A stretch of DNA of 64,000 bases, taken from the NCBI GenBank assembly GCA_035402805.1, contig DAONDY010000001.1, positions 177,548 to 241,547 of the forward strand. The letters are read 5' to 3'. How positions within the stretch are numbered: the stretch's first letter is position 1; each line of letters starts with the position of its first letter. This document shows positions 1,667 to 21,467 of this stretch, in pieces. The position numbers and the translations under genes were made by a program. The stretch is from Candidatus Woesebacteria bacterium (GTDB taxonomy: Bacteria > Patescibacteriota > Microgenomatia > UBA12405). A model generated the notes under the pieces. It saw nothing but the letters and a program-made list of their open reading frames with translations, had not been told where the DNA came from and did not search any database.

Positions 1667-1679
1667 ATTTGATTAAAAT

Positions 1680-3518: not shown

Positions 3519-3569
3519 CCTTGCATTGTACTATAATATCTAAAATATGCAATAAATTAGGTTAATTTA

Positions 3570-4328: not shown

Positions 4329-4333
4329 CTATT

Positions 4334-4933
4334 ATGAATTTAAAAACCAAAATTCAATTTATTAGTTTAATTATTATTTCTTCTGTTTTATTTTCTGCTT
4401 GCACCAATAAAGCTTCAGAAACCAATTTAGATTTAAATATGAACCAAGATATTTCTCCAACTCAATCTGTTACTCCCACTATTACTAACATTCCTAGTAA
4501 TGATGTTCTTGTTGCTATAAAAACTAAAGATGGTGAAATAGTTTTAAAACTTTATTCCAAAGAAGCTCCTAATACTGTGGCTAATTTTATTAAAAAAGCT
4601 GATTCTGGATTTTATAAAAATTTAACCTTTCATCGAGTTATTGCCGGTTTTATGGCTCAAGGTGGCGATCCAATCGGTACGGGCACTGGTGGTGGTCAAA
4701 TTAAATCAGAAATAAATACCATTCCTTTTGTTCGCGGAACTATTGGTTTAGCTCGTGGTGGTAATCGAGAAATTAGTAACGACAGCCAATTTTTTATTTG
4801 TTTTAGTACTCAAGGTTGTCAGCACCTAACCGGTGATTATGTAAATTTTGGTGAAGTTGTTTCGGGTTTAGATGTTTTAGATAAAATCTCCCAGGGCGAC
4901 AAAATTATAGACATTACCACTAAAACAAAATGA
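4334..4933 (+). CDS. ppiB: Peptidyl-prolyl cis-trans isomerase, cyclophilin type, lipoprotein
   Basis: Cyclophilin signature FHRVIAGFMAQGGDP...GTGGGG. Signal peptide with a lipobox-like LFSAC. The stop codon is TGA. Confidence 0.85.
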   Translation: MNLKTKIQFISLIIISSVLFSACTNKASETNLDLNMNQDISPTQSVTPTITNIPSNDVLVAIKTKDGEIVLKLYSKEAPNTVANFIKKADSGFYKNLTFHRVIAGFMAQGGDPIGTGTGGGQIKSEINTIPFVRGTIGLARGGNREISNDSQFFICFSTQGCQHLTGDYVNFGEVVSGLDVLDKISQGDKIIDITTKTK

Positions 4934-5319
4934 TCAAAAAAATTATTACAGTTTTAATTGTTTTTGCTATTATTTTTGGGTTTTATAAAATAACTTCCCA
5001 AAAACCGGCTTCAATTACATCTACTCCAACTCCAGACGCAAGTTTAGTTTTATTTTTTGGCGACACTTGTCCTCACTGTAAAGATGTTGAAGAATTTATA
5101 TCTCAAAATAAAATTGAAGAAAAAATAAAGATAAACAAATTTGAAGTTTATAGTAATAAAACCAATGCCAATTTAATGTCTCAAATGGTTAAAGATAATT
5201 GTCCTGATAACTTAAACTCAGAGGGTTTACCGGTTCCGTTTTTAATCAATACTGAAACAAAAAGTTGTTTTATAGGTACCCCTGATATAACTAATCACCT
5301 AACAGAAAAGGCAAAATAA
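4930..5319 (+). CDS. Membrane-anchored thioredoxin-fold protein with a CPHC active site (thiol-disulfide oxidoreductase-like)
   Basis: N-terminal TM helix followed by a CPHC motif (FFGDTCPHCKD). Small size, and its start overlaps the cyclophilin stop. Confidence 0.6.
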   Translation: MIKKIITVLIVFAIIFGFYKITSQKPASITSTPTPDASLVLFFGDTCPHCKDVEEFISQNKIEEKIKINKFEVYSNKTNANLMSQMVKDNCPDNLNSEGLPVPFLINTETKSCFIGTPDITNHLTEKAK

Positions 5320-5342
5320 GCCTTTAATGGTAAAATTATATT

Positions 5343-5750: not shown

Positions 5751-5756
5751 TAAATT

Positions 5757-6830
5757 ATGTCTAACCTATCAGAATTAAAATCGAAACTAATTATTTTAAA
5801 GGACAAATTATCCTATAAAGACAATTTAGAAAAATTAAACGATTTAAAAATAAAAGCAGAAAACGAAAATTTTTGGAAAGATCAAATTAAGGCTCAAGAA
5901 ATTTTACAAGCTATTTCCGATCTTCAAAAAAACATTCAGAATATTGATTCAATCGAATCGGATATTAAGAATCTTGAAGAGTTTGAGACATTTTTAAAAA
6001 ATGAACCAGATGTCACCCTAGAAGAAGAAATGGTACTTCACCTCAAAGATTTGAATAAAAAAATTTCTCTTTTAGAACTTCAGACCTATCTTTCCGGTAA
6101 ATATGATAAAAATAATGCCATTTTTTCAATTCATTCAGGGCAGGGGGGTACTGAAGCCATGGATTGGGCCGCTATCTTACAACGTATGTATATGAAATTT
6201 TTTGAAAAAAAAGGTTGGAAATTTGATGTAATTGATATCACTCCAGGTGAAGAAGCTGGCATAAAATCAGTCTATTTTAAAATCTATGGAAATTATGTTT
6301 ATGGCTATCTTAAGCACGAGGGCGGCACTCATCGTCTGGTTCGTCTTTCTCCTTTTAATGCTGACCAACTTCGCCAAACTTCTTTTGCTAAAGTTGAAGT
6401 TAGTCCAGTTATTCAAAACGATGATACTGTCATCATTAAACCTGAAGATATTGAATTTTCCGCATTTAGATCTGGTGGCCATGGAGGTCAAAATGTCAAT
6501 AAAGTTTCTACTGCTGTTCGCATAGTCCATAAACCAACTGGAATTTCAGTTAGTTCTCAAAGCCAACGATCTCAAGAACAAAATCGTAATATGGCCATGG
6601 AAGTTTTATTGTCTAAACTTTGGGCTATTGAACAAGAAAAACAAAATCAAGAAGAAAAAGATATTAAAGGCGAAAATGTAATTGCTGGTTGGGGACACCA
6701 AATTAGATCTTACGTTCTCCATCCTTACAAAATGGTCAAAGATTTACGTACTAGGTATGAAACTTCCGATACTACCGCCGTTCTAGACGGTGATCTTGAC
6801 GCTTTTATTGAAGCCGAGTTAAAATTATAA
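5757..6830 (+). CDS. prfB: Peptide chain release factor 2
   Basis: SPF tripeptide (RLSPFNA) specific to RF2, plus the GGQ motif ([13 protein letters not shown]). It is a single uninterrupted 357-aa ORF with no programmed +1 frameshift site. Confidence 0.9.
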
Positions 6831-6832
6831 AC

Positions 6833-7882
6833 ATGACTCCCCTTCAAATCTTAATTAAGAGCCTCAAGATATTTTTGGTCTTCATCTTTGGATCATTTTT
6901 TTTGTTTTTATTTTTAATTGTTTTAACTTCCAGCCTAATTTCTCGATCTGCTAATAAGTCTCCAAGCTATTTAATCGAAACATTTTTTAACTCGATTAAA
7001 AATAATCCTTATCAATCAAAAGACAAAATTAATTTTTTAATTTTAGGATTAGATGAACGTAATGATGCTCTGGAAAAAACTTCTACCACCGATACTATAA
7101 TTTTTGCGTCTTTAAATCTTAAAACTTTTAAATTAAATATGGTTTCGACTCCAAGAGATCTTTGGTTTTATGAAAAAGAAGTCAAAATAAATGGTCTTTA
7201 TCCGTTAGCTCTAGAGTCTGGTCAAAATAAATTTGATTTTTTAAAATCAAATTTTGAAAAACTTTATGATCAATCGATTGACCATGTAGTTATCCTTACT
7301 ACCGACAATTTAATCTCTTTTGTTAATCTTATTGGCGGAGTTGATCTTTATTTAGAAAAGGGTTTTACCGATAATCAGTATCCTAACCCAGAATATATTA
7401 AAAATCCTTCTAAAGATATTCCTATTTATAAAACTATTTCATTTCCATCAGGCCAAATTTATTTAGATGAATCCAATGTTACCGAGTTTGTTCGTTCCCG
7501 AAAAAGTGCTGAAACTAGTATTGAAGGTGGTACCGATATCGGTCGAATTGAACGCCAACAACTTTTAATTGAAGCCATTTTAAATAAAATAAAATCAGGA
7601 GAATTAATAAAAGAAAAAAACCAACTTAAAAATTTATATTTCTTTTGGGATAAAGAAATATCTAAGACTCTTTCTGATATTGATGCTTTACAAATGGTCT
7701 TAGCCATAAACGAAAACATTTCTAAAATTTCTCTTAACAAAATTGAAATACCAGTTGGTCAAAACTCCAAAACAGGTATAATTTACCATCCTCTCAAAAA
7801 TATCAATAAACAATGGGTATTTGTTACCAGCGATGATAAATATCAGGCTTTCCAAAAATTTATTTCTGATCAAATTAAATAA
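6833..7882 (+). CDS. LytR-CpsA-Psr (LCP) family cell-envelope polymer transferase
   Basis: N-terminal TM helix. The LCP core is FLILGLDERNDA...TDTIIFASLN...VSTPRDLW. Confidence 0.7.
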   Translation: MTPLQILIKSLKIFLVFIFGSFFLFLFLIVLTSSLISRSANKSPSYLIETFFNSIKNNPYQSKDKINFLILGLDERNDALEKTSTTDTIIFASLNLKTFKLNMVSTPRDLWFYEKEVKINGLYPLALESGQNKFDFLKSNFEKLYDQSIDHVVILTTDNLISFVNLIGGVDLYLEKGFTDNQYPNPEYIKNPSKDIPIYKTISFPSGQIYLDESNVTEFVRSRKSAETSIEGGTDIGRIERQQLLIEAILNKIKSGELIKEKNQLKNLYFFWDKEISKTLSDIDALQMVLAINENISKISLNKIEIPVGQNSKTGIIYHPLKNINKQWVFVTSDDKYQAFQKFISDQIK

Positions 7883-7887
7883 AATAT

Positions 7888-8352
7888 ATGAAGAATAAAT
7901 TATATAAATTTACATTGATTTATATAATTATATTTTATGTTTTAGCAACTATAGGTTTTGTCTTAATTAAAAACTACTATAAAAATAATTACAGTCAGGA
8001 AAAACTAGATATTTTATTAAATTCGAAATCTATCTGGGATAATTTAAGTGATAATCCTTGTAATGCCCAAATTTTTAGCAATCCAGTGTCTAACAAAGAA
8101 GGATCGATACAAATAAATCTTTACTGTTCTTCAGGTCAAAAAAGTTTAAATACTTTATCTTTAATCGCTTTAAAAGATAATAAAACATTAAAAAATGCTA
8201 TTCAGGAAATTGGTAAAATAAATGCTTTTAACCCAAAACAAATTTTTGAACTAAATAATAAATGGAATTGTCTTTTAAATAAAAATAAAATTTCTGATTT
8301 TAATATTTCTATTAGTAACGGGAATATTATAAATTGTTATCAAAATAAATGA
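7888..8352 (+). CDS. Hypothetical Cys-containing secreted/membrane-anchored protein
   Basis: 154 aa with an N-terminal TM helix and several Cys in the extracytoplasmic part. No motif recognised. Confidence 0.4.
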   Translation: MKNKLYKFTLIYIIIFYVLATIGFVLIKNYYKNNYSQEKLDILLNSKSIWDNLSDNPCNAQIFSNPVSNKEGSIQINLYCSSGQKSLNTLSLIALKDNKTLKNAIQEIGKINAFNPKQIFELNNKWNCLLNKNKISDFNISISNGNIINCYQNK

Positions 8353-9776
8353 TTAAATATCTAAAAATTTTATTTAAAACATTTTTTGTCATTTTAATTT
8401 TAATTATTTCCTTTAAATTAAGATACAAAAATTATGATCAAATTCCTGTTGTTGGGCAATCAGTTGATGAATACAGTAATTCTTGGGTTGGGTTGTCTTT
8501 AATAAAAATAGGTTACCCTGTCGGTATAACCAATATGAAAGGTTATAAAGCCGATGATTACCGATATGTTAACGTGGATCATATTTATCAAAAAGTTGAG
8601 GGAACTCCTTTTAATATGGGTAAACCATGGTTCGATCATCCTCCTCTTATTGGTTTATTAACTGGATCTTACGCCCATTTAAAAGGTGCTCAAGTTTTTG
8701 AGGATGTTCACTTGTTTTTGATTAGAAAACCAATGCTATATTTAGGAACTTTTTCTGTGTTATTGATTTTTTTAATCGGTTTAATAAATTTTAATTATTT
8801 TACCGGTCTAATTGCTGCCACTATCTACGGAACGACTCCTTTTGTAGTTTTTGCCAGTCGTATGGCTCAATCTGAAAATGGAGTAATTCCTATGTTTCTC
8901 TTGTCTTTATTGTTTTATTCTTTATTCAAAAAAAATAAACATTATTTTTATCTCTTTTTAAGTGCCATTTTTGCTGGATTATCAACTTTATTTAAAATAC
9001 CTGGAGTAGTTTCCATACTTTCAATTATATTTTTGATTTATTCTGATAATAAAAAACAACTTAAAAATCAACCAGCCAAGATTGAAGAAATAGTTTTTTT
9101 TAGCGCCATTGCTTTTTCAATAACCAGTTTATTCGCAATTTATGGTCTTGTTTACGATTGGACAACTTTTAAAAACATTTTTAATACTAATGCCAATCGA
9201 TACTATGGCATCGGACCTTATGCTGTTTTTCATTTATTAACTAAAAATAATATTACTAATGTTAAAAGTATGACCGATGCTTGGGTCATAACGTCTTGGA
9301 TATCGTTTTTTATTTTAATGTTTAGAAAAAAAAATAATTTTGGCGAAAAACTGATAACTGTTTCGACCTTAAGTTATTTAGCTATTTATCTTATTCTTGG
9401 CAGCGATCCATTCGGCTGGTATACCTTTCCTTTTTTACCATTTTTATCAATTGCTCTGGCTCGTGTTTTATATTTAGGTTTTAATAAAGCCAAATATATG
9501 ATTACCAATTTTATATTATTGCTAATCCCTCTCGGATTTAATCTCAGTCATTTTATAGATATTCCTTCGTTCCAAAAATACTCCAATATTTGGCGTTTTT
9601 CCATTGGTTTTTTCATTATTCTATTAATTTTCTTAAAATTAAGAAAATTTAGCCATCCTAAATTTATTAGCCTATTTATTAAACTAATACTTATTTTAAC
9701 CTTTGCTGTGGCTATTTATTTGAATATTAAATATGTTTTTTCAATTGACATTAGTAAATGGTACGGAATAACTTAA
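8349..9776 (+). CDS. Polytopic GT-C-type membrane glycosyltransferase (PMT/ArnT-like), paralog family D
   Basis: 475 aa with about 11 predicted TM helices. The acidic first-loop region is VDEYSNSWVGLS...KPWFDHPPL. It is a paralog of 32263..33756 (ELLYSWSGINLI...KPWLDEPPL). Confidence 0.6.
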   Translation: MIKYLKILFKTFFVILILIISFKLRYKNYDQIPVVGQSVDEYSNSWVGLSLIKIGYPVGITNMKGYKADDYRYVNVDHIYQKVEGTPFNMGKPWFDHPPLIGLLTGSYAHLKGAQVFEDVHLFLIRKPMLYLGTFSVLLIFLIGLINFNYFTGLIAATIYGTTPFVVFASRMAQSENGVIPMFLLSLLFYSLFKKNKHYFYLFLSAIFAGLSTLFKIPGVVSILSIIFLIYSDNKKQLKNQPAKIEEIVFFSAIAFSITSLFAIYGLVYDWTTFKNIFNTNANRYYGIGPYAVFHLLTKNNITNVKSMTDAWVITSWISFFILMFRKKNNFGEKLITVSTLSYLAIYLILGSDPFGWYTFPFLPFLSIALARVLYLGFNKAKYMITNFILLLIPLGFNLSHFIDIPSFQKYSNIWRFSIGFFIILLIFLKLRKFSHPKFISLFIKLILILTFAVAIYLNIKYVFSIDISKWYGIT

Positions 9777-9780
9777 GATT

Positions 9781-9815
9781 ATTCCTTTTAAATTAAAGGA
9801 ATTTCAGTTTTTTTG
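9781..9815 (+). terminator. Putative intrinsic terminator after 8349..9776
   Basis: Hairpin ATTCCTTT-TAAATT-AAAGGAAT followed by TTCAGTTTTTTT, 5 nt after the stop codon. Confidence 0.45.
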
Positions 9816-9881
9816 CTATACTGAATTATTACTATTTTTGTTAGAAATTAGAAATTAAAAATTTAATTAAAAATAAATAAT

Positions 9882-10376
9882 ATGGATATCCCAAATTTAT
9901 CTCAAAACCCTCAAATTCCAGTTTCTGAGCCAGTTGTTGCCCAAAAACCAAAAAGTTCTAAAACTATTTATTTTATAATTGTAGTTTTGGCCGTTGCTTT
10001 GGGATTTTGGGTATCTAGATTTTTTCCATCATCAAAATCCGGATCTGGTCTTATTAGCAATCTTACTAAAAGTAATGTAACTCCAGCCGCTAGTCTCAAG
10101 AATTCCAATGATTTAGTTGTTGGACAATCTTATGGTGATACCGGCAAAACTTTCACTGATACTGCCATTGGAACCATTATTAAAGGCGGTATTAACGGCG
10201 AAGGCACTCACACTCTCCAAAGAGAAGGCGGTAAAACTCAAAATGCTGCTCTTACATCTTCTGTAGTTGATCTCGATCTCTTCCTCGATAAAAAGGTTGA
10301 AATTAAAGGAGAAACAAATTCCTCAAATAAAGCTGGTTGGTTTCTAGATGTTGGTATCATAAAAATATTGGAATAA
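9882..10376 (+). CDS. Hypothetical membrane-anchored protein
   Basis: 164 aa with an N-terminal TM helix and a G/T/S-rich extracytoplasmic domain. A 105-nt intergenic region lies upstream. Confidence 0.45.
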   Translation: MDIPNLSQNPQIPVSEPVVAQKPKSSKTIYFIIVVLAVALGFWVSRFFPSSKSGSGLISNLTKSNVTPAASLKNSNDLVVGQSYGDTGKTFTDTAIGTIIKGGINGEGTHTLQREGGKTQNAALTSSVVDLDLFLDKKVEIKGETNSSNKAGWFLDVGIIKILE

Positions 10377-10379
10377 ATT

Positions 10380-11033
10380 ATGAAAATCGTCTTTGATCAA
10401 GTCGACAAAAATTTTGGGATAGTTAATGCTCTAAAAAATATTAATTTCGAAATAGATCAAGGAGAATTTGTTTTTATTACCGGTAATTCTGGTGCCGGTA
10501 AATCAACTTTATTAAAACTTATTTTAAACCAACTTAAACCTAGTTCGGGAAAAATTTTGCTTGGTGATATCGATCTCTCACTTGGTAATAAAGAAGATAT
10601 CAATCAAACCAGAAGAAAAATAGGAGTCGTTTTTCAGGATTATCAACTTATTCCAGATAAGACAATCGAAGAAAATATTGCCTTAATATTGGATATTGTT
10701 AATTATCCAAAAGAAAAAATTCAATCGCGAATAGATCAAGTTATTAAAGAAGTTAATCTTGGTACTCGCCGTTTTCTTTTCCCATCACAATTAGCTGGTG
10801 GCGAGCTTCAAAGGGCCGCTTTAGCTCGTGCTTTAGCTATTGAGCCAGAAGTTATTCTCGCCGATGAACCAACAGGTAATTTAGACCAGGAAAATTCATG
10901 GAACCTAATTAAACTTCTAAAAGAAATCAATCAAAAGAACAATACTACTATTATTATGACCACCCACAACAACGATATTGTTGATTCAATGGGTAAAAGA
11001 GTTATTAAACTTAAAGAAGGAGAAATTATATGA
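10380..11033 (+). CDS. ftsE: Cell division ATP-binding protein FtsE (ABC ATPase)
   Basis: Walker A GNSGAGKST, ABC signature LAGGELQR and Walker B ILADEPT. It is immediately followed by the ftsX permease. Confidence 0.85.
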   Translation: MKIVFDQVDKNFGIVNALKNINFEIDQGEFVFITGNSGAGKSTLLKLILNQLKPSSGKILLGDIDLSLGNKEDINQTRRKIGVVFQDYQLIPDKTIEENIALILDIVNYPKEKIQSRIDQVIKEVNLGTRRFLFPSQLAGGELQRAALARALAIEPEVILADEPTGNLDQENSWNLIKLLKEINQKNNTTIIMTTHNNDIVDSMGKRVIKLKEGEII

Positions 11034-11902
11034 GTCCATTAAAAACTACTTGGCATCACATCAGAAGATCGCCATTTCAAAGTTTAATCGCCCTTATTGT
11101 TATGGTTTTGAGTTTTTTCTTTATTTCTCTTTTTGCCATTATAAATTCCGGTCTTTCATCGGTCTTGAATTATTTTGAAACCAAACCAGAAATTACTTTA
11201 TTTCTAAAAGACGGTCTTGATAAGAGCACTGTTGAAAATATCCAAAAAGATTTATCTAGTTATCAAAGCATTAAAGAAATTACTTTCATTTCAAAAGAAA
11301 AAGCTCTTAGTATCTATAAAGAACAAAATAAAGGTAACCCTCTATTAACTGAAATGGTTACTGCTAGTATTTTACCAGCCTCTTTTGAAATTACCGTTTC
11401 TAACCCTCAGGTTTTAGAGCAGATTTATCAAAATTATTCCACTAAAACTAATGTTATTGATGAAATTATTTATCAGAAAGATATTATTCAGTCTTTACTG
11501 GATTGGACTAGTGCCACCAGAAAAATTGGCATTGCTATTATTTTAATAATTTCTTCAATTTCCTTTTTAACCATAATAACCATTATTGGTATGAAGATTA
11601 CTAACCGCAAGGATGAAATAAAAATTAGCCGACTTATCGGTGCCTCTAATTTTTATGTTAAAAAACCATTTTTATTAGAAGGAATTATTTACGGAGTTAT
11701 CGGTAGTATTTTGGGATTTATTTTTAGTTTTTTAATTGCTTTAGTTTCTCAAAAATCAATTAATTCCTTTTTCCAGCCAGTAGTTTTTATTGATTTGAAT
11801 GTCAATTTTTATTTAATTCTTTTAGTTGTTGAAATTTTAGTCGGAACTTTTTTAGGGTTTTTTGCTAGCTGGGTCGGTGTCAAAAGATATATTAAATATT
11901 AA
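11030..11902 (+). CDS. ftsX: Cell division permease FtsX
   Basis: 290 aa. N-terminal TM helix, a large extracytoplasmic loop, then three C-terminal TM helices. Its start overlaps ftsE by 4 nt. Confidence 0.8.
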   Translation: MSPLKTTWHHIRRSPFQSLIALIVMVLSFFFISLFAIINSGLSSVLNYFETKPEITLFLKDGLDKSTVENIQKDLSSYQSIKEITFISKEKALSIYKEQNKGNPLLTEMVTASILPASFEITVSNPQVLEQIYQNYSTKTNVIDEIIYQKDIIQSLLDWTSATRKIGIAIILIISSISFLTIITIIGMKITNRKDEIKISRLIGASNFYVKKPFLLEGIIYGVIGSILGFIFSFLIALVSQKSINSFFQPVVFIDLNVNFYLILLVVEILVGTFLGFFASWVGVKRYIKY

Positions 11903-11907
11903 ACTTA

Positions 11908-13128
11908 ATGTTTAAAAAAATTATTTTTTTATTTTTAGCTTTACCTTTTTTTTTATCTAAGATTTCCTCTTGCTATGCCACAGATCAAAGCGAATTAGAA
12001 AAGCAAATAGCTGAATATACTATAAAACTGGCAGAATTGGATAAGGCTAAAGATACTCTTTCAAATCAAATTAAAATTATTGATTCACAGGTTGAGTTAA
12101 CGCTTTTAAAAATTTCTCAAACAGAAAATTCGATTAAAAATCTCGAACAAGAGATTAATAATCTTACTGTAGAAATAGATAAGCTTAATAATCAATTGAA
12201 CGAGTTGTCATCAATTTACGTTCTTCAAATTATTCAGAATTACAAACTTCAAAAAAATATTCCACCTTTTACTTTTTTATTTTCATCGCGACTTAATAAT
12301 TTTTTAGAACAATATAAATACGTTTCAAGTATTCAAAAAGCCAGTCAAAACAGTTTAATTAATATGGAAACTGTTCGTAGCAATTACGATGCTCAAAAAA
12401 CTGCTAAAACCAAAAAACAACAGGAGATGGAAACTCTTCAAAAAACTTTAGCTTCCCAAAAAATTACCCTTAATAATCAAAAAATTGCCAAAAATAAACT
12501 CCTAGAAATTACCAAAAATGACGCCAAAGAATATGAAAGACGTCTATCAGACGCTGTTAATCAATTAAATTCTTTTAAAAGTTTTACCACCAGCAGTGGT
12601 GGAGCCACTCTTTTATCAGGACAAACTCGTTGCGATGATTGGGGTTGCTATTATAACCAACGAGACTCTCAATGGGGGAATATCGTCTTTGGATATAGTG
12701 ATGATAGAAATGGCAACAGAACATATTACGACATGAAAGGATACGGCTGTTTAATAACCTCTGTTACTATGGTTTTGAGACACTATGGTAAATCTGTTGA
12801 TCCTTCTAATTTATCAAAAGATTCGAGTTTATTTTATGGCCATTCTGGTGATATGTTACAAGGTGATCTGTCTACTAATGGAATTAACTTTAGTCGAACA
12901 GTTCTCGGCAGTAGATTGTCTTTAGCTGATTCTGAACTAAATTCTGGTCGACCTGTTATTGCTGGTGTTGGTGGATCTTACCGATATCCAGCTCATTTTA
13001 TCGTTATTAAATCAAAAAGAGATGGCCAATATATTATCAACGACCCCTATCCAGAAAATGGATCCGATAAAAAATTATCAGATACTAATTATGTTGTGGT
13101 TAGAATTGAATCTATAAAAGTCAAATAA
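11908..13128 (+). CDS. FtsEX-associated coiled-coil cell-wall hydrolase with a C-terminal C39-like/papain-fold cysteine peptidase domain (PcsB/EnvC analogue)
   Basis: Signal peptide, about 200 aa of heptad-rich coiled coil (LEKQIAEYTIKLAELDKAKDTLSNQIKIID...), then Q...GYGCLITSV...AHFIVIKS...NDPYP, which gives the Gln/Cys/His/Asp of a papain-like peptidase. The position directly after ftsEX matches the EnvC/PcsB operon logic. Confidence 0.6.
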   Translation: MFKKIIFLFLALPFFLSKISSCYATDQSELEKQIAEYTIKLAELDKAKDTLSNQIKIIDSQVELTLLKISQTENSIKNLEQEINNLTVEIDKLNNQLNELSSIYVLQIIQNYKLQKNIPPFTFLFSSRLNNFLEQYKYVSSIQKASQNSLINMETVRSNYDAQKTAKTKKQQEMETLQKTLASQKITLNNQKIAKNKLLEITKNDAKEYERRLSDAVNQLNSFKSFTTSSGGATLLSGQTRCDDWGCYYNQRDSQWGNIVFGYSDDRNGNRTYYDMKGYGCLITSVTMVLRHYGKSVDPSNLSKDSSLFYGHSGDMLQGDLSTNGINFSRTVLGSRLSLADSELNSGRPVIAGVGGSYRYPAHFIVIKSKRDGQYIINDPYPENGSDKKLSDTNYVVVRIESIKVK

Positions 13129-13160
13129 AAATCCCCCACTTTTCAGCAGGGGATTTTGTT
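13128..13160. terminator. Bidirectional intrinsic terminator between convergent genes
   Basis: AAAUCCCC-(12-nt loop)-GGGGAUUU hairpin, flanked by an A-tract upstream and UUUUGUU downstream. It lies between the stops at 13128 (+) and 13176 (-). Confidence 0.6.
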
Positions 13161-13175
13161 AAATTTAATTTAGTT

Positions 13176-13796
13176 TTAGTAACCTCTAGCCTTTTTTCTG
13201 AAATAAATTCCAGATCCAGCTGTTAAAGTAACTAAAATTGTTTTTAATATAATATCTGAAGCACCAGTGGCTGGTACAGTGGTTTTGCCAATAAAATAAC
13301 TGGCATAATCTTGATCACAAGAACCACCACCACAAGATTCAACTTTATTAGTTTGTTTAGTTAAAGTACTAAGTTTATTAGTGTCGTTAATTTTAGCTCT
13401 GATCAAATATGTTTTACTTTCCCCAGCTTCTAATTTATCAATATTCCAGTCAACAATATATTGATCTTTATTAAAATTACCTGGATAAAAAATTAGAGTT
13501 AAATATTTAGGTAAAATATCTTCTGTTTTAATATTATAGACAACTTCGTCACTAATATTTTCAACTCTAATTTGAAATTCAACTACATCCTTTTCGTAAA
13601 AAGTTTTTCTAGAAGCTTCAATATTGTCGTAATATTTGGTATCACCGATAGATCTTATTTTTTTATCGATTGAAAGTTTAGCCTTTCCACCTTGGGAATA
13701 AGATTGACCGTAGGCCTTAAAAGGGCTGAATAGGGATAAAAACAATATCACTATTGCACTTAATCCAAAGCCAATTGATAGTTTTTTGTGTTTCAC
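13176..13796 (-). CDS. Secreted surface protein with a C-terminal LPXTG-like (VPATG) sorting signal
   Basis: N-terminal signal peptide. The C-terminus is TTVPATGASDIILKTILVTLTAGSGIYFRKKARGY, a motif-hydrophobic-basic tail arrangement like that of sortase substrates. Confidence 0.5.
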   Translation of the reverse strand: MKHKKLSIGFGLSAIVILFLSLFSPFKAYGQSYSQGGKAKLSIDKKIRSIGDTKYYDNIEASRKTFYEKDVVEFQIRVENISDEVVYNIKTEDILPKYLTLIFYPGNFNKDQYIVDWNIDKLEAGESKTYLIRAKINDTNKLSTLTKQTNKVESCGGGSCDQDYASYFIGKTTVPATGASDIILKTILVTLTAGSGIYFRKKARGY

Positions 13797-13906
13797 CTGC
13801 GTTATTAATAATTAATTATAGGCCATTATATTGCCAAAATGTCTATTTGTCAAGTAAAAACTCTTATAACTTGTTTTTTCTGCCTTTTTTGCTTTATACT
13901 TTACCT

Positions 13907-14635
13907 ATGAATAAATTTTTAATAAGTGAGCTTTCTGTCTTTTTCCCTTGTTATAACGAAGAGAAAAACATTCAAAATACTATCGATAAAACTATTCCTG
14001 TTCTTAAAAAAATAGCCCAAAAATGGGAAATTATTCTAATTAATGATGGTTCAAAAGACAATACCGGCCAAGTTTTAGAAGAAATTAAAAAAGATTACCC
14101 AGAACAAATAAAAATAATTACCCATAATCCCAATCGTGGCTATGGTGCTGCACTTAAAAGTGGTCTTTATAATTCCAAATATCAATGGATTGCTTTTACC
14201 GATTCTGATGGTCAATTTGATTTTTCCGAAATTACCAAGTTTATCGAAAAACAGCAAAAAACCAATGCTGATATTATTATTGGCTACTATCTTGCCCGTC
14301 AAGTTTCTAAAGCCGCCATCATTACCTCTAAAATTTGGGAGGTAATTGTTTTCATTCTTTTTGGTCTTCATGTCACCGACATTGATTGTGGTTTTAAACT
14401 AATCAATAAAAAAGTCGTTGATACCATTCCTAAACTAGAAGCTGAAAGGGGAGCCTTTATCAGCAGTGAATTCCTTATTAAATCTAAAAAAGCTGGTTTT
14501 AAAATCAGTGAAATAGGTGTTCATCATTATCCTCGAATTGAAGGTAAAGCTACCGGTCGAAATATTAAAGTTATTATTAAAAGCTTTTCCGATTTATTTA
14601 AGCTTTGGTTTAAAATTAATTTTCATCGTGCTTAA
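13907..14635 (+). CDS. GT2 polyprenol-phosphate sugar synthase (DPM1/GtrB-like)
   Basis: LSVFFPCYNEEKNIQ...ILINDGSKDNT...FTDSDGQFD matches the DPM1-like GT2 core. The ATG at 13907 was chosen because the TTG/ATG-extended ORF from 13754 would overlap the convergent upstream gene. A plausible promoter is TTGTTT-N17-TATACT at 13864-13893. Confidence 0.75.
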   Translation: MNKFLISELSVFFPCYNEEKNIQNTIDKTIPVLKKIAQKWEIILINDGSKDNTGQVLEEIKKDYPEQIKIITHNPNRGYGAALKSGLYNSKYQWIAFTDSDGQFDFSEITKFIEKQQKTNADIIIGYYLARQVSKAAIITSKIWEVIVFILFGLHVTDIDCGFKLINKKVVDTIPKLEAERGAFISSEFLIKSKKAGFKISEIGVHHYPRIEGKATGRNIKVIIKSFSDLFKLWFKINFHRA

Positions 14636-16112
14636 AAAATTTCTCAAAAAATATTGGGTTTTGGTATTAATTTTATTGTTGGCTTCTTTTTTACGTCTCT
14701 ATCGGCTTTCTGACTACATGGAATTTCTAGGTGATCAAGGTCGAGATGTGACAATTATTAAAGATTTCCTTAAAAACGGTAATCTATTTTTTATTGGCCC
14801 TCAAACCAGTATTGGTAATATGTATCTTGGCCCTTTTTTTTACTATTTAATTGCTCCATCATTGCTTTTATCAGCCTACAATCCGGTTGGTCCAGCTGTT
14901 TTTATTGCCATTCTTAGCGTTGCCACTGTCGCCCTAATTTTCTTTATAGGTAAAAAATGGTTTAACTTAAAAACTGCCTATATAGCTTCATTTTTATATG
15001 CTATTTCCCCAGTAGTTATTAAATATTCCAACTTTATTTGGAATCCGAATGTTATGCCGTTTTTTAGTCTTTTATTTGTTTATTTTTTCTTTGAAAGTTT
15101 TCGATCCAAAAAATTTCATTACTTTATCTATGCTTCTCTAGCTTTTGTAATGGTGATGAATAGTCATTATCTTGGCTTGGCTCTTTTGCCTTTTACCGGC
15201 TATTTTTGGCTTTATAGTTTAATTAAATTTATTAGATCAAAATCATCAGAGTTAAAACCATTCATAAAGTACACCTTACTTGCGGCTTTAATTTTTATTA
15301 TTTCTCTAACCCCTCAAATTCTTTTTGATATTAAGCATAATGGTCAAAACGTCAAAGCTCTTTTAAATTTTTTCACTTATCGCGAAACCACTGTCAATAT
15401 TAAGCCATACAAAGCCATTCCGGAAATGCCCGCCATTTTTAATCAAATTAATACTAATCTATTGGCCGGCAAAGAATCAAATACTACCGGTGGAATAATA
15501 ATTAGTATTACTTTTGCCCTTTTAATTTTATTTACCCTATTTAAATTTAAAAAACAAAAATCAACTTATTGGATTGTTTTTATTTGGTATTTATCAGGTA
15601 TTGCCGCTTTAGCTCTCTATAAACAACATATCTATCCGCATTATTTTGCCTTTCTTTTCCCTCCAATCTTTATTCTCATTGCTTTTCTAATCCAAAAATT
15701 TAAGTTCATAGGCGTTCCTCTTTTTGCTCTAATAACCTTTTTTTGTTTAAAAGAAATTCCTTTTCGTTGGCAACCAAATTATCAGCTAAAAACGACTATT
15801 AAAATAGCCGACTTAATCATTTCTAATTCAGATAATAAAGATTTTAATTTTGCCTTACTTGCCAAGCAAAACTATGATCCAACTTATAGATATATATTAG
15901 ACGAAAAAGAAGCAAAAATAGTAAATTTACCGGAAAAAATGGCTGAACAACTATTTGTAGTTTGTGAGCCTTTTCAAATTGATTGTAATCCTATTAATAA
16001 CCCTGAATGGTCTGTTGCCGCCTTTGGTTGGGCAAAAATAGATAATCAATGGGAAATAAATGGAATTAAAATTTTTAAAGTAATTCATAATCCAGATGGT
16101 AAAAAAGAATAA
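14628..16112 (+). CDS. Polytopic GT-C-type membrane glycosyltransferase (PMT/ArnT-like), paralog family C
   Basis: The N-terminus FLRLYRLSDYMEFLGDQGRDV aligns with the 16096 paralog (FLRFYRQGDLLGFYYDQGRDA). About 12 TM helices. A GTG start at 14628 is proposed. The GTG-extended ORF from 14517 would overlap the upstream GT2 gene by 119 nt. Confidence 0.55.
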   Translation: MLKKFLKKYWVLVLILLLASFLRLYRLSDYMEFLGDQGRDVTIIKDFLKNGNLFFIGPQTSIGNMYLGPFFYYLIAPSLLLSAYNPVGPAVFIAILSVATVALIFFIGKKWFNLKTAYIASFLYAISPVVIKYSNFIWNPNVMPFFSLLFVYFFFESFRSKKFHYFIYASLAFVMVMNSHYLGLALLPFTGYFWLYSLIKFIRSKSSELKPFIKYTLLAALIFIISLTPQILFDIKHNGQNVKALLNFFTYRETTVNIKPYKAIPEMPAIFNQINTNLLAGKESNTTGGIIISITFALLILFTLFKFKKQKSTYWIVFIWYLSGIAALALYKQHIYPHYFAFLFPPIFILIAFLIQKFKFIGVPLFALITFFCLKEIPFRWQPNYQLKTTIKIADLIISNSDNKDFNFALLAKQNYDPTYRYILDEKEAKIVNLPEKMAEQLFVVCEPFQIDCNPINNPEWSVAAFGWAKIDNQWEINGIKIFKVIHNPDGKKE

Positions 16113-17601
16113 TTTAAAAACTTTTTTTAAGAATAATTGGCTAATCATTATAATTTGGCTAGTTGGTCTATTTTTAAGATTTTATCGCCAAGGCGATTTA
16201 TTGGGCTTTTATTATGATCAAGGTCGAGACGCTTTGATCGCCCAAGACATCATTGATGGTAAAAATTTTCCTGCTATTGGGCCTACCACTGGAATTCAAG
16301 GTTTATATTTAGGCCCGTTTTGGTTCTATTTAATAACTCCAGGTTATTTTTTTGGAAAGGGTAATCCAGTTATTGCTAGTTTCTTTATTGGATTTTTAGA
16401 AAGTCTAACTATTCCTCTAATTTATTTTTTACTAAAAAAATATTGGAATAAAGTTGGAGCCGTCTTTGCCGCTACTTTTTGGTCTTTTAGCTACTATCTG
16501 ATTCTTTCTAGTCGTTGGTTTTCTAACCCTTCACCTCTGCCGTTTTTTGTCATTTTAATCATTTATTTTTTACTCCAAGTTTTTCAGGAAAAACAATATA
16601 AGTATTTACCCTTAGTATCTTTTTTATTAGGAATTTGTCTTCAGCTTGAAGCCGCTTCAGCTGTCTTTTTTATTCCAACTATTTTAATTTTTTCTTTAAT
16701 AAATTATCGTATTTTGATAAAAATAAAGCTAAAGTTTTGGTTTCAATCAATCATTTCCTTTTTTGTTCTTTTAATTCCCCAACTTGCCTTTGAAATTAAA
16801 AACAATTTTTTTATTACCAAAAATTTGTTTGGTTTTTTAACTGGTAAAGTGAATTCAGCTTCTGGAAAATCATGGACTATTCCGACTCTTGCTTTTGCTA
16901 AAACAAGAATTTTAGACTTTTATAAAATTCTTTTTTCTAAATTAGATACCAATGTTACCTGGGTTTCTATTATTTTTTTAATAGTCTTTATCTTTAGTGT
17001 AATTTTATTATTAACTAAATTAAAAGATAAGTTTATTCAGCTTTTATTATTATGGCTATTTGTTCCCTTATTTTTTCTTTTATTTTTTGTTGGCAATTAC
17101 GGTAATCTTTATGATTATTATTTAACAGGATTTTTCCCTGCTTTTTTCATTATTTTTTCAATGGGAATAACCTTTTTTAACAAATCTATTTTAAATAAAT
17201 TATTAATATTAATTGTTTTTATTTTGTTTTATATAGGAAATATTTCTTTTATTAGAAATAAATTATCAGCTTGGATTGACGGTCCAGAGCATATTACTCT
17301 TGGAAATCAAAAATGGGCCTTAAATAAAATTTGCCAAGAAACTAAAGATAAAAAGTATAATCTTTCTATTTATGTTCCTCCATATACTCCTTATTCGTAC
17401 GATTATTTGATGAATTGGTACGTAAAAAATAATAAATGTACTCCTCCAGTCAAAGAGGAATCATCCTTAGTTTATTTTCTTTATGAGGTTGATCCAAATA
17501 ATCCAGACAGATTAAATACTTGGCTACAAGATAACACTACTAAAATACAATCAGAGGACAGTCTGGGTGGAGTTCACGTTCAGCAAAGATTAAGAAAATA
17601 G
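16096..17601 (+). CDS. Polytopic GT-C-type membrane glycosyltransferase, paralog family C
   Basis: 501 aa with a YYDQGRDALIAQDI first-loop motif. It is a tandem paralog of the preceding gene. Confidence 0.6.
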   Translation: MVKKNNLKTFFKNNWLIIIIWLVGLFLRFYRQGDLLGFYYDQGRDALIAQDIIDGKNFPAIGPTTGIQGLYLGPFWFYLITPGYFFGKGNPVIASFFIGFLESLTIPLIYFLLKKYWNKVGAVFAATFWSFSYYLILSSRWFSNPSPLPFFVILIIYFLLQVFQEKQYKYLPLVSFLLGICLQLEAASAVFFIPTILIFSLINYRILIKIKLKFWFQSIISFFVLLIPQLAFEIKNNFFITKNLFGFLTGKVNSASGKSWTIPTLAFAKTRILDFYKILFSKLDTNVTWVSIIFLIVFIFSVILLLTKLKDKFIQLLLLWLFVPLFFLLFFVGNYGNLYDYYLTGFFPAFFIIFSMGITFFNKSILNKLLILIVFILFYIGNISFIRNKLSAWIDGPEHITLGNQKWALNKICQETKDKKYNLSIYVPPYTPYSYDYLMNWYVKNNKCTPPVKEESSLVYFLYEVDPNNPDRLNTWLQDNTTKIQSEDSLGGVHVQQRLRK

Positions 17602-17604
17602 TTT

Positions 17605-19101
17605 TTATTCAGTGTATCCCAATAAAGGATCGAGCTCATTTTTTGGATCCTCACACCAAGCCTTACTAGAAGCCTTTGTTTGTGTTGGTAGAATAACTCC
17701 AAACCTACCATATCTTTGATCTACTTCATCTGTGCTAACTTCCCAAGGAATAACAATATTGTAGGTTGGGACTGAAGCACTTGGTTTGATAATGTCGACA
17801 CCTTTCCACCAGAGTAAGTATCTAAACCCGACTCCAGTTCCAAATTTAGCCACATAATTTATACCAACACATGGATAATTATTTTTAAGTTGATCAGCCT
17901 TAATATATTCAACGACTTGCTTTTTATAGAAGTAAGAATCGTTTAAGTCAGTCGTATTTATTAGCCAAGAAAAATTAAAAAATAAATAAACTCCACCCAA
18001 ACCAAAAGCTATTTTACTTAGATATTTATTCTCCAATAGTAAGCCAAAAGATAAAGCCACCACTAATATATATAGCGGCAAATAGTTCGTGAAATAATAT
18101 TCGCTAACTACTCTTTTTGATGTAAATTGCGCCAAGCCAACTATAAATATCCATATAGACATTAAGATCAAGTCTTTTCCTGGTAATTTTTTAAATTTAT
18201 AAGCAATAAAAGTGACTAATATAAAGAAAGGCCACATAAGTTCAAAAGGTTTTATTAGCCATTCAGAAATTAATCTTCTCTGCATTTCCCAGGCTGAAGC
18301 ATTGACTACTTTTTTAAGTTTTGCAAAGCCAGTTGGATTACCCAAATCTTTTTTTGAAGCAATAATCACACTTTTTACTTGTGAGAAATTATGTTTAATT
18401 TCAAAAAACCAGAAAGGACTGCTTACTAAAAAAAATATTAATAAAGAGACTAAAACATTTTTTATTTTAATTGCTTTAAATTTTTCTTTAAAGGTACCCT
18501 CAGACATAAAATATGCCAAGATAGGTATTGGTAAAACCGGTAAAAGACCGATATGGATATGGTAAGAAAGGCCAACCAAAACAGCGTAAAAAGGCATTAG
18601 TTTTAAATTTTTTCTACGCATTCCCAAAATTACGTATAAAAACCATACCGACCAAATCACCGCTGGTTCAGTTGGTACTGACCATTTATCATAAAAAGCC
18701 GCTCCAAAAGAAACAGAATAGATAAAGGCCATTATTAAACCAACTTTTTCAGAAAAATATTTTTTACCTAAAATATAAAAGCTTACTATTGTTAGTAAAC
18801 CAATTATGGTTGTTGGAACAATTGCACTCATTGGATTCATGTTGGACAACCAATAGCTCAATGCCATTAAGTAATAGTAAAGTGGCCCAATAAAAACTCC
18901 ATCAACACTGGTAATTTGTCCCACACTTCTTAAGTGTTTATTAACTACTATGTCCTTAGCAATCCAAGAATACAAATCTTGATCATGTCCAAATCCAAAA
19001 GATTTTTCAAAATTATAAACCCTCATTACCAAACCCACCGCCAAAATCAAGCCCATTATTATAAAAACCTTTTTATTAGTTATTTTTTTTATCTTTGACA
19101 T
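17605..19101 (-). CDS. Polytopic GT-C-type membrane glycosyltransferase, paralog family C (inverted copy)
   Basis: 498 aa. FGFGHDQDLYSWIAKDI...GPLYYY aligns with the family C N-termini. It is convergent with 16096..17601, and their stops are only 3 nt apart. Confidence 0.6.
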   Translation of the reverse strand: MSKIKKITNKKVFIIMGLILAVGLVMRVYNFEKSFGFGHDQDLYSWIAKDIVVNKHLRSVGQITSVDGVFIGPLYYYLMALSYWLSNMNPMSAIVPTTIIGLLTIVSFYILGKKYFSEKVGLIMAFIYSVSFGAAFYDKWSVPTEPAVIWSVWFLYVILGMRRKNLKLMPFYAVLVGLSYHIHIGLLPVLPIPILAYFMSEGTFKEKFKAIKIKNVLVSLLIFFLVSSPFWFFEIKHNFSQVKSVIIASKKDLGNPTGFAKLKKVVNASAWEMQRRLISEWLIKPFELMWPFFILVTFIAYKFKKLPGKDLILMSIWIFIVGLAQFTSKRVVSEYYFTNYLPLYILVVALSFGLLLENKYLSKIAFGLGGVYLFFNFSWLINTTDLNDSYFYKKQVVEYIKADQLKNNYPCVGINYVAKFGTGVGFRYLLWWKGVDIIKPSASVPTYNIVIPWEVSTDEVDQRYGRFGVILPTQTKASSKAWCEDPKNELDPLLGYTE

Positions 19102-19162
19102 CTTTCAAATATTAACATAATTTATATTTTCCAATCAAACGAATTGATTGTATAATTTAGTA

Positions 19163-19927
19163 ATGAAATCAATTTCTATTATTATTCCGTGCTATAACGA
19201 AGAAAATAATCTTAAGAATGGTGTTTTAGATGAAGTTTATAATTTTCTTAAAACTCAAAAAAATACTTGGGAAGTCATCATTTGTAATGATGAATCTACC
19301 GATAATAGTCTTAAATTAGCTCAAGATTTTGCTTCCAAACACAAAGGTTTTCGAGTTTTAGATTTACCTCATGGAGGTAAACCTTCGGCTGTCTGGGGCG
19401 GCATTAAAAATGCTAAATATCCCATCTCTCTTTTTACAGATATGGATCAATCCACTCCCTTAAAAGAATTAACTAAATTATTACCATTCTTTGAAGATGG
19501 ATTTGATGTCGTAATTGGCTCTAGAGGTATCTCTCGTGAAGGTAATTCTTTAATCAGAAAAATAATGGCTCGAGGTTTTCTCTTTGGTCGTCGCTTGGTT
19601 TTACTACCTAATATAATTGACACTCAATGTGGTTTTAAGGCTATTAAAACTGATTTAGCTAAAAAAATATTTCCTAAGCTTGGCTTTTTTAAAGATAAAA
19701 GCGAAAAAAAGGGTTGGCGAGTTTCTGCTTTTGATGTTGAACTCCTTTTTATGGCTCAAAAGTGGGGACATAAAATAAAAGAGGTTGAAGTTGATTGGAA
19801 GAACGAAGATTTAAGTACTACCAAAGGTGACAACTCTGCTCGTTTTAAAAAAGAGTCAAAACAGATGCTCCAGGAAATTTTTAGAGTTATTCGAAATAAT
19901 ATTCATGGTGTTTATGACCAAAAATAA
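19163..19927 (+). CDS. GT2 polyprenol-phosphate sugar synthase (DPM1-like)
   Basis: ISIIIPCYNEENNL...VIICNDESTDNS...FTDMDQSTP. The ATG at 19163 was chosen because the track's 19148 start is a TTG. A possible promoter is TTCCAA-N16-TATAAT at 19128-19156, which would give a near-leaderless mRNA. Confidence 0.75.
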   Translation: MKSISIIIPCYNEENNLKNGVLDEVYNFLKTQKNTWEVIICNDESTDNSLKLAQDFASKHKGFRVLDLPHGGKPSAVWGGIKNAKYPISLFTDMDQSTPLKELTKLLPFFEDGFDVVIGSRGISREGNSLIRKIMARGFLFGRRLVLLPNIIDTQCGFKAIKTDLAKKIFPKLGFFKDKSEKKGWRVSAFDVELLFMAQKWGHKIKEVEVDWKNEDLSTTKGDNSARFKKESKQMLQEIFRVIRNNIHGVYDQK

Positions 19928-21467
19928 ATTTTTTCGTTTTTTCTTATTAATATTAATTGCCACTTTTTATTTTGTTTCTCGTTTTCAAAACTTAAATTCC
20001 ATTCCTGTTTTTTGTGACGAGGCAATTTATATTCGTTGGGCTCAAATTATCCAATCAGAAGACAATCTCAGATTTATTCCTCAAACAGATGGTAAACAAC
20101 CTCTTTTTATGTGGCTGAATGCCGTTACTCTTAAATTAGTTGGTGATCCTCTTATCTCGGGCCGTTTAATATCTATTTTTTCTGGTTTTGGATTGTTATT
20201 AGTCTTATTTTTAACCACCGCCGTTTTTCTCAATTACGAAGATAAAGAAACAAATATTTTTAAATTTATTAAAACTAGTATCAATAAGAACTTTTATCAA
20301 GGTCTTTTTACCTCTTTAATCTACTGTTTAATTCCTTTTTCCTTTTTCTTCGATCGTCTTGCTTTGGCTGATAATTTATTATCTTTTTTTGGGTTTTTAG
20401 CTCTTTTATTTTCTTTTTTATTATCAAAATATCCCAGATTAGATTTATCCCTTATTTTAGGCTTTATCCTTGGTCTGTCTTGGCTTACTAAATCTCCCGC
20501 CATATATTTTGTTGTCCTTTCCTTTTTAACCTTTTTAGTTTTAAAAAAGAAATCTGGTATTTATCTTCCATTGATTTCCTCAGTAGTTGCTTTTTTAATT
20601 TACAACATCCTTCGTCTCGGGCCTCAATTTCAAATGATTGCTCTTCGTAATAAAGATTATATTTGGACGATTTCTGAGGTTCTAAAACACCCTTTTGATC
20701 CCTTAAAACCCCATCTTTTAAATGCTTTTAATCTCTATTATCAATACATCTCTTTACCGCTTTTGATTTTTGCTCTTATCGGGTTAATTTTACTTTTTAA
20801 AAATCGATCAAATAGTAAATTACTAAATACTAAATATTTAATTTTGGCTAGTTGGTGGCTTTTACCATTAATTGCCAATGCTGCCATGGCAAAAGTCTTT
20901 ACCGGTAGATATATTCTTTTTACTCTTCCACCCTTAATAGTTTTAATTTCTGTTGGTTTCTCTAATTTTTTAGTCAAAATAAAGTCAAATATTTTAAAAA
21001 TAATTTTAATTATTTCTGTTTTTATTTTAAATATAAATTTTATTTATAAAATTTCTCTTAATCCATTCCAACAAAAGTTGATTTCTTCCGAACGAAATTA
21101 TCTTGAAGAATGGACTTCGGGTTGGGGGATTAAAGAATCAGCTGATTTTCTAAAAGAAAGATCATTAAGTGCCAATGTCATAGTTGGTACTGAAGGTGCT
21201 TTTGGTACTCTTCCAGATGGCCTCCAAATTTATACTCGTAATATTCCTCATTTAACTGTTATTGGTGTAGGTTTAGGTTTTTCTAAAATACCAACTAGTC
21301 TCATTAATGCTAGGGACTATGGTGATGAAGTCTATCTCCTTATTAACAAATCCCGTCTTAAACTTGACACTGACGAACTAAATCAACTCGAATTAGCCAA
21401 ATCTTTTATTAAACCTGACGGAGACCAATTACTTCTTTATAAATTAAAACCAGTTACTGTAAAATAA
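19905..21467 (+). CDS. Polytopic GT-C-type membrane glycosyltransferase (ArnT/PMT-like)
   Basis: First-loop CDEAIYIRWAQ motif and more than 11 TM helices. Start ATGs at 19905 and 19914 both overlap the upstream GT2 gene end only slightly. The track's 19827 start is discarded. Confidence 0.55.
   Translation: MVFMTKNKFFRFFLLILIATFYFVSRFQNLNSIPVFCDEAIYIRWAQIIQSEDNLRFIPQTDGKQPLFMWLNAVTLKLVGDPLISGRLISIFSGFGLLLVLFLTTAVFLNYEDKETNIFKFIKTSINKNFYQGLFTSLIYCLIPFSFFFDRLALADNLLSFFGFLALLFSFLLSKYPRLDLSLILGFILGLSWLTKSPAIYFVVLSFLTFLVLKKKSGIYLPLISSVVAFLIYNILRLGPQFQMIALRNKDYIWTISEVLKHPFDPLKPHLLNAFNLYYQYISLPLLIFALIGLILLFKNRSNSKLLNTKYLILASWWLLPLIANAAMAKVFTGRYILFTLPPLIVLISVGFSNFLVKIKSNILKIILIISVFILNINFIYKISLNPFQQKLISSERNYLEEWTSGWGIKESADFLKERSLSANVIVGTEGAFGTLPDGLQIYTRNIPHLTVIGVGLGFSKIPTSLINARDYGDEVYLLINKSRLKLDTDELNQLELAKSFIKPDGDQLLLYKLKPVTVK

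Follow-up and report, generated by a model that had tools for sequence, protein, structure and literature searches.

A single-domain CLIPPER protein as a probable sortase substrate with an LPXTG-type signal in a Candidatus Woesebacteria genome

Is the C-terminus of a small surface protein from Candidatus Woesebacteria a genuine sortase sorting signal, and which enzyme would act on it? The question was raised by a gene at positions 13176..13796 (minus strand; GTG start, TAA stop) of a 64,000-nucleotide stretch of contig DAONDY010000001.1 (hereafter the window; G+C content of about 30%). Its 206-aa product is identical to NCBI entry HPT65878.1 (locus tag PK257_01025, 'hypothetical protein', Candidatus Woesebacteria), and its host is placed among the Microgenomates, a branch of the candidate phyla radiation (CPR). 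The results below make it probable that HPT65878.1 is a small one-domain surface protein, likely exported by the Sec pathway and covalently attached to the wall by a membrane-bound sortase. LPXTG-type sorting in which Val or Ile stands where Leu is usual is a textbook mechanism and no surprise to the specialist.

The protein consisted of four parts: a signal peptide, one CLIPPER/DUF11 immunoglobulin (Ig)-like domain, the pentapeptide VPATG, and a hydrophobic helix of 21 residues that leads into RKKARGY. An AlphaFold2 model based on 33 homologues (mean predicted local distance difference test score, pLDDT, of 78.9) contained a helix at residues 5-23, a confident beta-sandwich at 41-170 (block pLDDT 85-95), a low-confidence linker at 174-179 and a helix at 180-203. 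The predicted signal peptide (residues 1-30; 13707..13796, minus strand) had the sequence MKHKKLSIGFGLSAIVILFLSLFSPFKAYG and was followed by QSY. It combined a basic n-region (KHKK), a hydrophobic core of 18-20 residues (mean Kyte-Doolittle hydropathy 1.95) and small residues at positions -3 and -1 of the predicted cleavage site, between AYG and Q. These features, together with the modelled helix, are those expected of a typical Sec signal peptide; the original prediction for this gene, made from the DNA letters without database searches, had proposed a signal peptide.

At the C-terminus, FIGKTT was followed by VPATG (residues 174-178; 13263..13277, minus strand), which falls within the low-confidence linker and has its predicted sortase cleavage site between T177 and G178. 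Next came the hydrophobic membrane-retention segment ASDIILKTILVTLTAGSGIYF (residues 179-199; 13200..13262, minus strand), supported by the modelled helix, by hydropathy (1.28-1.63) and by conservation, and finally the basic tail RKKARGY (residues 200-206; 13179..13199, minus strand), which is conserved and would be cytoplasmic in the expected topology. The sorting-signal peptide considered as a sortase ligand was GKTTVPATGASD. The original prediction had read this region as TTVPATG, about 22 hydrophobic residues and a basic tail; the motif and the tail stand as described, the hydrophobic stretch measures 21 residues and includes two charged ones, D181 and K185, near its outer end, and the strand, left unstated there, is the minus strand.

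Conservation was counted in an alignment of 85 full-length family members, down to about 39% identity, and the motif was kept in all of them. Pro175 and Gly178 were invariant (85/85 each), and Thr177 was present in 82/85, the other three having Ala. Position 176 varied freely (A, D, E, N, V, K, S, T, G or Q). Position 174 was V in 60 members, I in 20, L in 3, S in 1 and T in 1, so that 83/85 had V, I or L; Leu, which the original prediction had taken to be replaced by Val in VPATG, is thus the exception in this family (3/85). The 21 distinct pentapeptides all matched [VILST]-P-x-[TA]-G, and this conservation points to a sortase recognition site, since a plain membrane anchor needs no such pattern. 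Replacement of Thr by Ala occurs in known sortase signals, as in LPLAG of Streptococcus pyogenes FctB. A first position other than Leu is likewise accepted in the pneumococcal pilin sortase motifs IPQTG, VPDTG and YPRTG (PMC5640630). Beyond the motif, exactly 28 residues followed Gly178 in 84/85 members, with D181, K185, T186 and G196 conserved within the hydrophobic segment, and R200 (85/85), K201 (82/85), R204 (84/85), G205 and Y206 (80/85) conserved in the tail. Two pattern scans of the stop-to-stop open reading frames (ORFs) of the window in six frames, with minimum lengths of 60 and 80 aa, returned 13176-13796 as the sole ORF combining xPx[TSA][GASND], a hydrophobic stretch and terminal basic residues.

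The window itself contained no sortase, in agreement with the original prediction. None was found among all six-frame ORFs with a hidden Markov model (HMM) trained on 118 CPR sortases and applied with filters off, nor by Pfam annotation of nearly all non-nested ORFs of at least 100 aa, which named glycosyltransferases, radical SAM enzymes, division proteins and housekeeping genes only. A phmmer search of the six-frame ORFs with Staphylococcus aureus SrtA, a weak test, also found none. The active-site pattern [LIVM][TS][LIVM]x[TS]C was tried and rejected as too strict, as it would miss LILQTC; its single match (18203-18565) was spurious, lying inside a gene on the opposite strand.

A sortase was present to the left of the window. 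The 10 kb upstream were obtained through NCBI contig CAZCFP010000001.1 (369,658 bp; locus L009), of which positions 9753-21017 correspond to window positions 1-11265 with 100% identity over 11,265 bp. The minus strand of L009 carried, at 3196-3888, an ORF of 230 aa whose distance to the left of window position 1 is 5.9-6.6 kb; about 19 kb separate it from the target gene. It scored 63.3 bits against PF04203 (cut-off 26.6) and 53.7 against TIGR01076 (cut-off 39.35). The identical NCBI protein, HPT65858.1, is named 'sortase [Candidatus Woesebacteria bacterium]' and precedes HPT65878.1 by 20 accession numbers. It possessed an N-terminal membrane helix, and the residues His144 (FAHS), Cys213 (QTCWP) and Arg222 were invariant in 118 sortase homologues; the active-site motif was LILQTCWP, not TLxTC, and the protein ended 8 residues past Arg222. 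A search of the genome for a PF04203 sortase had been proposed as a check, and with HPT65858.1 found on this very contig at a distance of 5.9 kb from the window's left end, the objection that the genome might encode no sortase-family transpeptidase falls away. The tripartite sortase-type sorting signal of the original prediction is supported by the presence of motif, helix and basic tail, by a conservation pattern that fits, and by this enzyme.

HPT65858.1 reached no class-specific NCBIfam cut-off. Its best score was for class C (NF033745, 64.5 against a cut-off of 160), followed by classes D, F, GN and E, all far below their cut-offs. An AlphaFold2 model of the enzyme (mean pLDDT 75) gave the same ranking at its head: the top 20 Foldseek matches in the PDB were nearly all class C sortases (E of about 1e-11, best 7e-12; 20-27% identity), with classes E and D next. 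Of the class C hallmarks, the lid motif (DP[WFY]) was not conserved in residues 64-88, as the segment between membrane helix and barrel was unconserved among the 118 sequences, and the C-terminal membrane helix was absent from the model. The enzyme thus resembles class C most closely and lacks the hallmarks of that class. Its gene stood in a greA / sortase-relA (relA/spoT) or sortase-tRNA synthetase setting with secA (about 3.5 kb away), serS and uvrABC nearby. Microgenomates contigs of about 1 Mb kept this neighbourhood even where identity had fallen to 51-52%, and such surroundings are those of a housekeeping enzyme, not of a pilus island. A sortase family occurs almost universally among Microgenomates according to a survey (PMC6744442), and CPR organisms have peptidoglycan synthesis (PMC7143001). 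Substrates of Microgenomates sortases were not named in the literature found.

The link between enzyme and substrate rests on co-occurrence, not on adjacency. In a relative, the locus of the sortase and that of the CLIPPER protein (67% and 63% identical to HPT65858.1 and HPT65878.1, respectively) overlapped through the BipA-DUF5665-HIT genes, so the arrangement of the two genes about 19 kb apart is conserved. Three further pairs of homologues were located on equal-sized contigs (57,169, 92,750 and 174,606 bp). No sortase was encoded within 10 kb of the CLIPPER gene in 15 species-representative loci and several metagenome loci. The family of HPT65878.1 comprised 68 clusters in homology searches, all of about 190-230 aa and all with PF01345, drawn from bins of Woesebacteria, Shapirobacteria and their relatives. 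A comparable search gave 804 clusters for the sortase, and from this far larger family size it is probable that the Microgenomates sortase acts on further substrates, at least in some lineages.

Other carriers of the tail were searched for at two scales. The 34-residue tail was turned into a profile and compared with 1.84 billion representative proteins; the 28 clusters recovered at E<=0.001 all belonged to the one-domain family of HPT65878.1 or were fragments of it, and the exact signature xPxTG...KT...RKxARGY was confined to orthologues. As it returned its own family only, this profile was unable to reveal generic LPXTG substrates. A homology search with a 42-aa tail profile returned one fragment. 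Within about 83 kb of the genome (the window plus about 10 kb per side), no second protein with such a tail was found. The other check proposed, for further proteins ending in xPATG, a transmembrane segment and a basic tail, therefore gave a divided answer: orthologues carry the tail, and the 83 kb read held no second substrate. The family nevertheless provides a concrete and conserved candidate substrate for a widespread, uncharacterised Microgenomates sortase.

The domain that would be displayed was a single CLIPPER/DUF11 Ig-like beta-sandwich (about residues 38-170; 13287..13685, minus strand). PF01345 (DUF11, recently renamed CLIPPER) matched residues 61-144 with 44.2 bits against a cut-off of 24.6, and the TIGR01451 repeat model scored 18.1, below its cut-off of 24. 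The Pfam match and the modelled sandwich bear out the beta-rich middle region described from the sequence at the outset. Foldseek ranked the solved CLIPPER structure 9IFR second among the matches to the sandwich (E=1e-5, target TM-score 0.67, about 14% identity), other fold matches being Gram-positive pilins (BcpA, SpaD, EbpC) and Antigen I/II domains. PDB sequences searched with a profile of the protein yielded no significant match, so the link to 9IFR rests on Pfam and fold. This structure comes from a fibrillar adhesin of Acinetobacter silvestris (PMC12617251) and shares with HPT65878.1 the Pfam family, a CnaA-like beta-sandwich, and Lys, Asp and Asn at equivalent strands (first, D-x-L-P and late); a Cys-x-x-x-x-Cys hairpin is reminiscent of the CTTC disulfide of 9IFR. 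The two differ in that the domain is single in the 206-aa protein and carries a predicted sortase signal, whereas in the adhesin it is repeated in tandem along the stalk of a protein that measures about 2000 aa and is anchored by an OmpA-like domain.

In the CLIPPER domain, a Lys-Asn isopeptide bond is catalysed by Asp (PMC12617251). The putative triad of HPT65878.1 comprised K45 on the first strand (13662-13664; 83/85 members), D93 in the D-x-L-P motif (13518-13520; 83/85) and N150 on a late strand (13347-13349; 82/85), all on the minus strand. Two distant members, P0074 and P0093, had lost all three residues and possessed four cysteines at other positions; the joint loss suggests that the three act as a unit. 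Conservation thus suggests an internal Lys45-Asn150 isopeptide bond with Asp93 as the catalytic residue, and in P0074 and P0093 this lock may have been replaced by disulfides. A cysteine pair at a hairpin, C155/C160 (CGGGSC), was found in about half of the family including HPT65878.1, in whose lineage conservation makes a Cys155-Cys160 disulfide likely. Eight kb from the target, a syntenic gene (4930..5319, plus strand) encoded a membrane-anchored thioredoxin-like protein of 129 aa with a CPHC motif and an N-terminal membrane helix. It is probably an extracytoplasmic thiol-disulfide oxidoreductase and could be the oxidase for the C155/C160 pair; for comparison, an MdbA-like family is reported to be enriched in CPR (PMC6744442).

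From these elements a four-step pathway can be proposed. The signal peptide would direct export and be removed after AYG30. The single CnaA-like domain would then fold outside the membrane, where conservation argues for a probable Lys45-Asn150 isopeptide with Asp93 as catalyst and for a likely Cys155-Cys160 disulfide. The C-terminal helix and RKKARGY would retain the protein in the membrane, with the linker GKTT-VPATG at the outer face if the topology is as predicted. Finally, by analogy with LPXTG systems, HPT65858.1 would cleave between Thr177 and Gly178 and transfer a protein of about 147 residues to an amine of the peptidoglycan precursor. With so short a linker, the domain would be placed in or near the wall, not on a stalk.

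The resulting picture is close to that of the LPXTG proteins of Gram-positive bacteria, such as the substrates of S. aureus SrtA. Both have a signal peptide, a Pro/Thr/Gly pentapeptide about 30 residues from the C-terminus, a hydrophobic helix with an Arg/Lys tail, and a membrane-anchored His/Cys/Arg sortase encoded amid housekeeping genes. HPT65878.1 and its relatives differ in the first residue of the motif (Val or Ile, not Leu), in the strongly conserved tail and helix of fixed length, in having almost no wall-spanning spacer, in the CPR host, and in a sortase that scores below every class A-F cut-off. Among characterized proteins, the S. pyogenes basal pilin FctB offers a likeness, being a small one-domain Ig-like protein that is wall-anchored through a variant motif (LPLAG); it differs from HPT65878.1 in its pilus operon and proline-rich tail, neither of which is present here.

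Several observations weigh against wall attachment by the sortase. Neither PF00746 (Gram_pos_anchor) nor TIGR01167 (LPXTG_anchor) matched the tail of HPT65878.1 at E<=1, although these are short models of mainly Firmicutes and Actinobacteria signals that serve as an annotation aid and do not define the class. The segment to be cleaved off is unusually conserved (D181, K185-T186, G196, RKxxRGY) and fixed at 28 residues, which a permanent membrane anchor in contact with a partner would explain as well, and two charged residues lie inside the hydrophobic stretch. Between the folded domain and VPATG lie only about 3 residues, a spacer far below the length of the wall-spanning regions usual in LPXTG proteins. 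The sortase gene is not adjacent to that of its presumed substrate, the scans for substrates and sortases cover about 83 kb of the genome, and cleavage at T177/G178 and linkage to peptidoglycan are drawn from the LPXTG systems by analogy. The conserved tail of fixed length, the short spacer and the lack of an anchor-model match keep two other explanations alive.

The first, which appears unlikely, is that the C-terminus is a membrane anchor that is never cleaved, in which PxTG serves as a hinge or contact motif and the helix and RKxxRGY dock on FtsX, a GT-C glycosyltransferase or the sortase. The conservation from D181 to Y206 and the constant 28-residue length would be accounted for in this way, as would the non-matching LPXTG-anchor models, the strict synteny with operons for membrane proteins, and the recovery of one family among the 1.84 billion representatives by the tail profile. 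A hinge, however, poorly explains why P, T and G are invariant, x is free and the first residue is V, I or L, which is a sortase signature; Thr gave way to Ala only, as in the LPLAG signal mentioned above. Moreover, a sortase is encoded in the genome and co-occurs with the family, and orthology alone can explain the conservation of the tail.

A pilin-like role for HPT65878.1 is also rather improbable. The sortase would link Thr177 to a conserved Lys of the next copy, producing a thin covalent fibre of one-domain CLIPPER subunits. The closest relatives of the enzyme by HMM score and fold belong to the pilus-specific class C, and [VI]PxTG with a first residue other than Leu is typical of pilin sorting signals, as in S. 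pneumoniae, whose class C pilin signals are RrgB IPQTG, RrgC VPDTG and RrgA YPRTG (PMC5640630). Isopeptide-stabilised Ig-like substrates are a further shared trait (putative here), as domains of the CnaA type build Gram-positive pilins and BcpA, SpaD and EbpC were among the fold matches. A second, nearly invariant lysine, K46 (79/85), lies beside K45, and the gene has a promoter-like site that matches the consensus perfectly. Against these likenesses, the class C score is far below 160, the sortase has no conserved lid motif in residues 64-88, and HPT65878.1 has no pilin-motif Lys of the YPK type. With its single domain, it also lacks an N-terminal domain to carry the nucleophile Lys. Nor do the two genes form a pilus-type cluster: the sortase is encoded amid housekeeping genes, no genes for tip or base pilins are found nearby, and polymerisation is not indicated.

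A bolder proposal, to which we attach little probability, is that the near-universal sortase and this CLIPPER protein form a dedicated pair, with the tail (KT...RKxxRGY, fixed length) as the recognition element, and that a lid-less class-C-like enzyme might polymerise the subunit into a minimal covalent fibre or a wall-embedded lattice. If true, ultra-small bacteria would possess a sortase-built surface structure of a new and reduced kind.

Sorting by an exosortase, archaeosortase, rhombosortase or lipid-anchoring enzyme is very improbable. The layout of motif, transmembrane helix and basic tail is common to all such systems, and family-specific tails are common in dedicated exosortase and archaeosortase pairs, but the motif is not PEP, PGF or GlyGly and fits the LPXTG-like type, Pfam annotation of the window and its 10-kb flanks revealed no exosortase, archaeosortase or rhomboid, and a bona fide sortase is present. 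A relation to the donor-strand Pam pili recently described in CPR was considered and set aside on account of the complete CLIPPER sandwich in the model and the absence of a pam-like operon around the gene.

We therefore regard HPT65878.1 as likely to be a substrate of the LPXTG type ([VI]PxTG) with one CLIPPER domain in a CPR bacterium, that is, a known mechanism in a little-studied group. With about 200 aa, one domain, a consensus-like promoter and a fixed locus, the family offers a testable handle on surface display in uncultured and probably host-attached cells.

The gene appears to form its own transcription unit, as suggested by a promoter-like site and a terminator-like hairpin. The predicted promoter, TTGACA-17-TATAAT (13825..13853, minus strand), matches the consensus at 12/12 positions, with its end 29 nt upstream of the GTG; in total, such sites were no more numerous in the region than in the shuffled expectation, and this one was the sole perfect match. 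The hairpin (13128..13157, minus strand), of 13 pairs followed by a T-run, lies between the target and a convergent gene, and was the one found where 0.2 were expected.

That convergent gene (11908..13128, plus strand) is located downstream of ftsE (10380-11033, plus strand) and ftsX (11030-11902, plus strand), and encodes a secreted protein of 406 aa with a coiled coil of about 200 residues (E=1.2e-6 for a weak match to EnvC) and a Peptidase_C39_2 domain (E=1.7e-10). Its layout is like that of PcsB and EnvC, i.e. an FtsEX-coupled wall hydrolase or activator, with a C39-like papain fold replacing CHAP or LytM, and the arrangement of ftsE, ftsX and this gene was kept in all related loci. The neighbouring Peptidase_C39_2 proteins were also considered as processing enzymes and set aside, the layout of the 406-aa protein being better explained by an FtsEX-coupled wall hydrolase.

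On its other side, the target adjoined, in 15/15 species-representative loci, a divergent gene for a GT2 glycosyltransferase (13907..14635, plus strand) that heads a GT2/PMT_2 operon. Many GT-C (PMT_2-type), GT2 and GT4 genes follow, so that the glycosylation locus which the original prediction had placed next to the gene is indeed there. That the protein may itself be glycosylated, as that prediction suggested, has the conserved adjacency to the GT2/PMT_2 operon as its one piece of evidence. The gene order was constant in all 15 loci (GTDB genomes, 41-80% identity): PMT_2-GT2 (divergent), CLIPPER, coiled-coil-C39-like-ftsX-ftsE (convergent), then an LCP gene and a thioredoxin-like gene. This fixed position between the ftsEX-hydrolase and GT2/PMT_2 operons suggests an envelope-structural role, which is only a hint.

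Further genes of the window concern the envelope. A second, shorter Peptidase_C39_2 protein of 252 aa is encoded at 3570-4328 (plus strand), in the same conserved envelope block as an LCP (LytR_cpsA_psr) ligase gene at 6833-7882 (plus strand); the latter implies that glycopolymers are attached to peptidoglycan. Between 14517 and 42027, on both strands, at least a dozen paralogous polytopic membrane proteins of 410-580 aa matched PMT_2, PMT, GT87 or PTPS_related (GT-C type), many of them weakly. They are interleaved with GT2, GT4 and Polysacc_synt/MurJ-like flippase genes; for a small genome, the extracytoplasmic glycosylation locus that results is very large. Six radical SAM genes, four with a B12-binding domain and one with SPASM, lie at 45642-59422 (plus strand) amid genes for glycosyltransferases and sugar epimerases or dehydratases, which suggests an unusual sugar or polymer modification, e.g. 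methylation, in this glycosylation island. Finally, several public metagenome-assembled genome records with this clearly CPR-type locus (L013, L016, L019-L021 and L023-L025) are titled 'uncultured Gammaproteobacteria bacterium' and are probably mislabelled.

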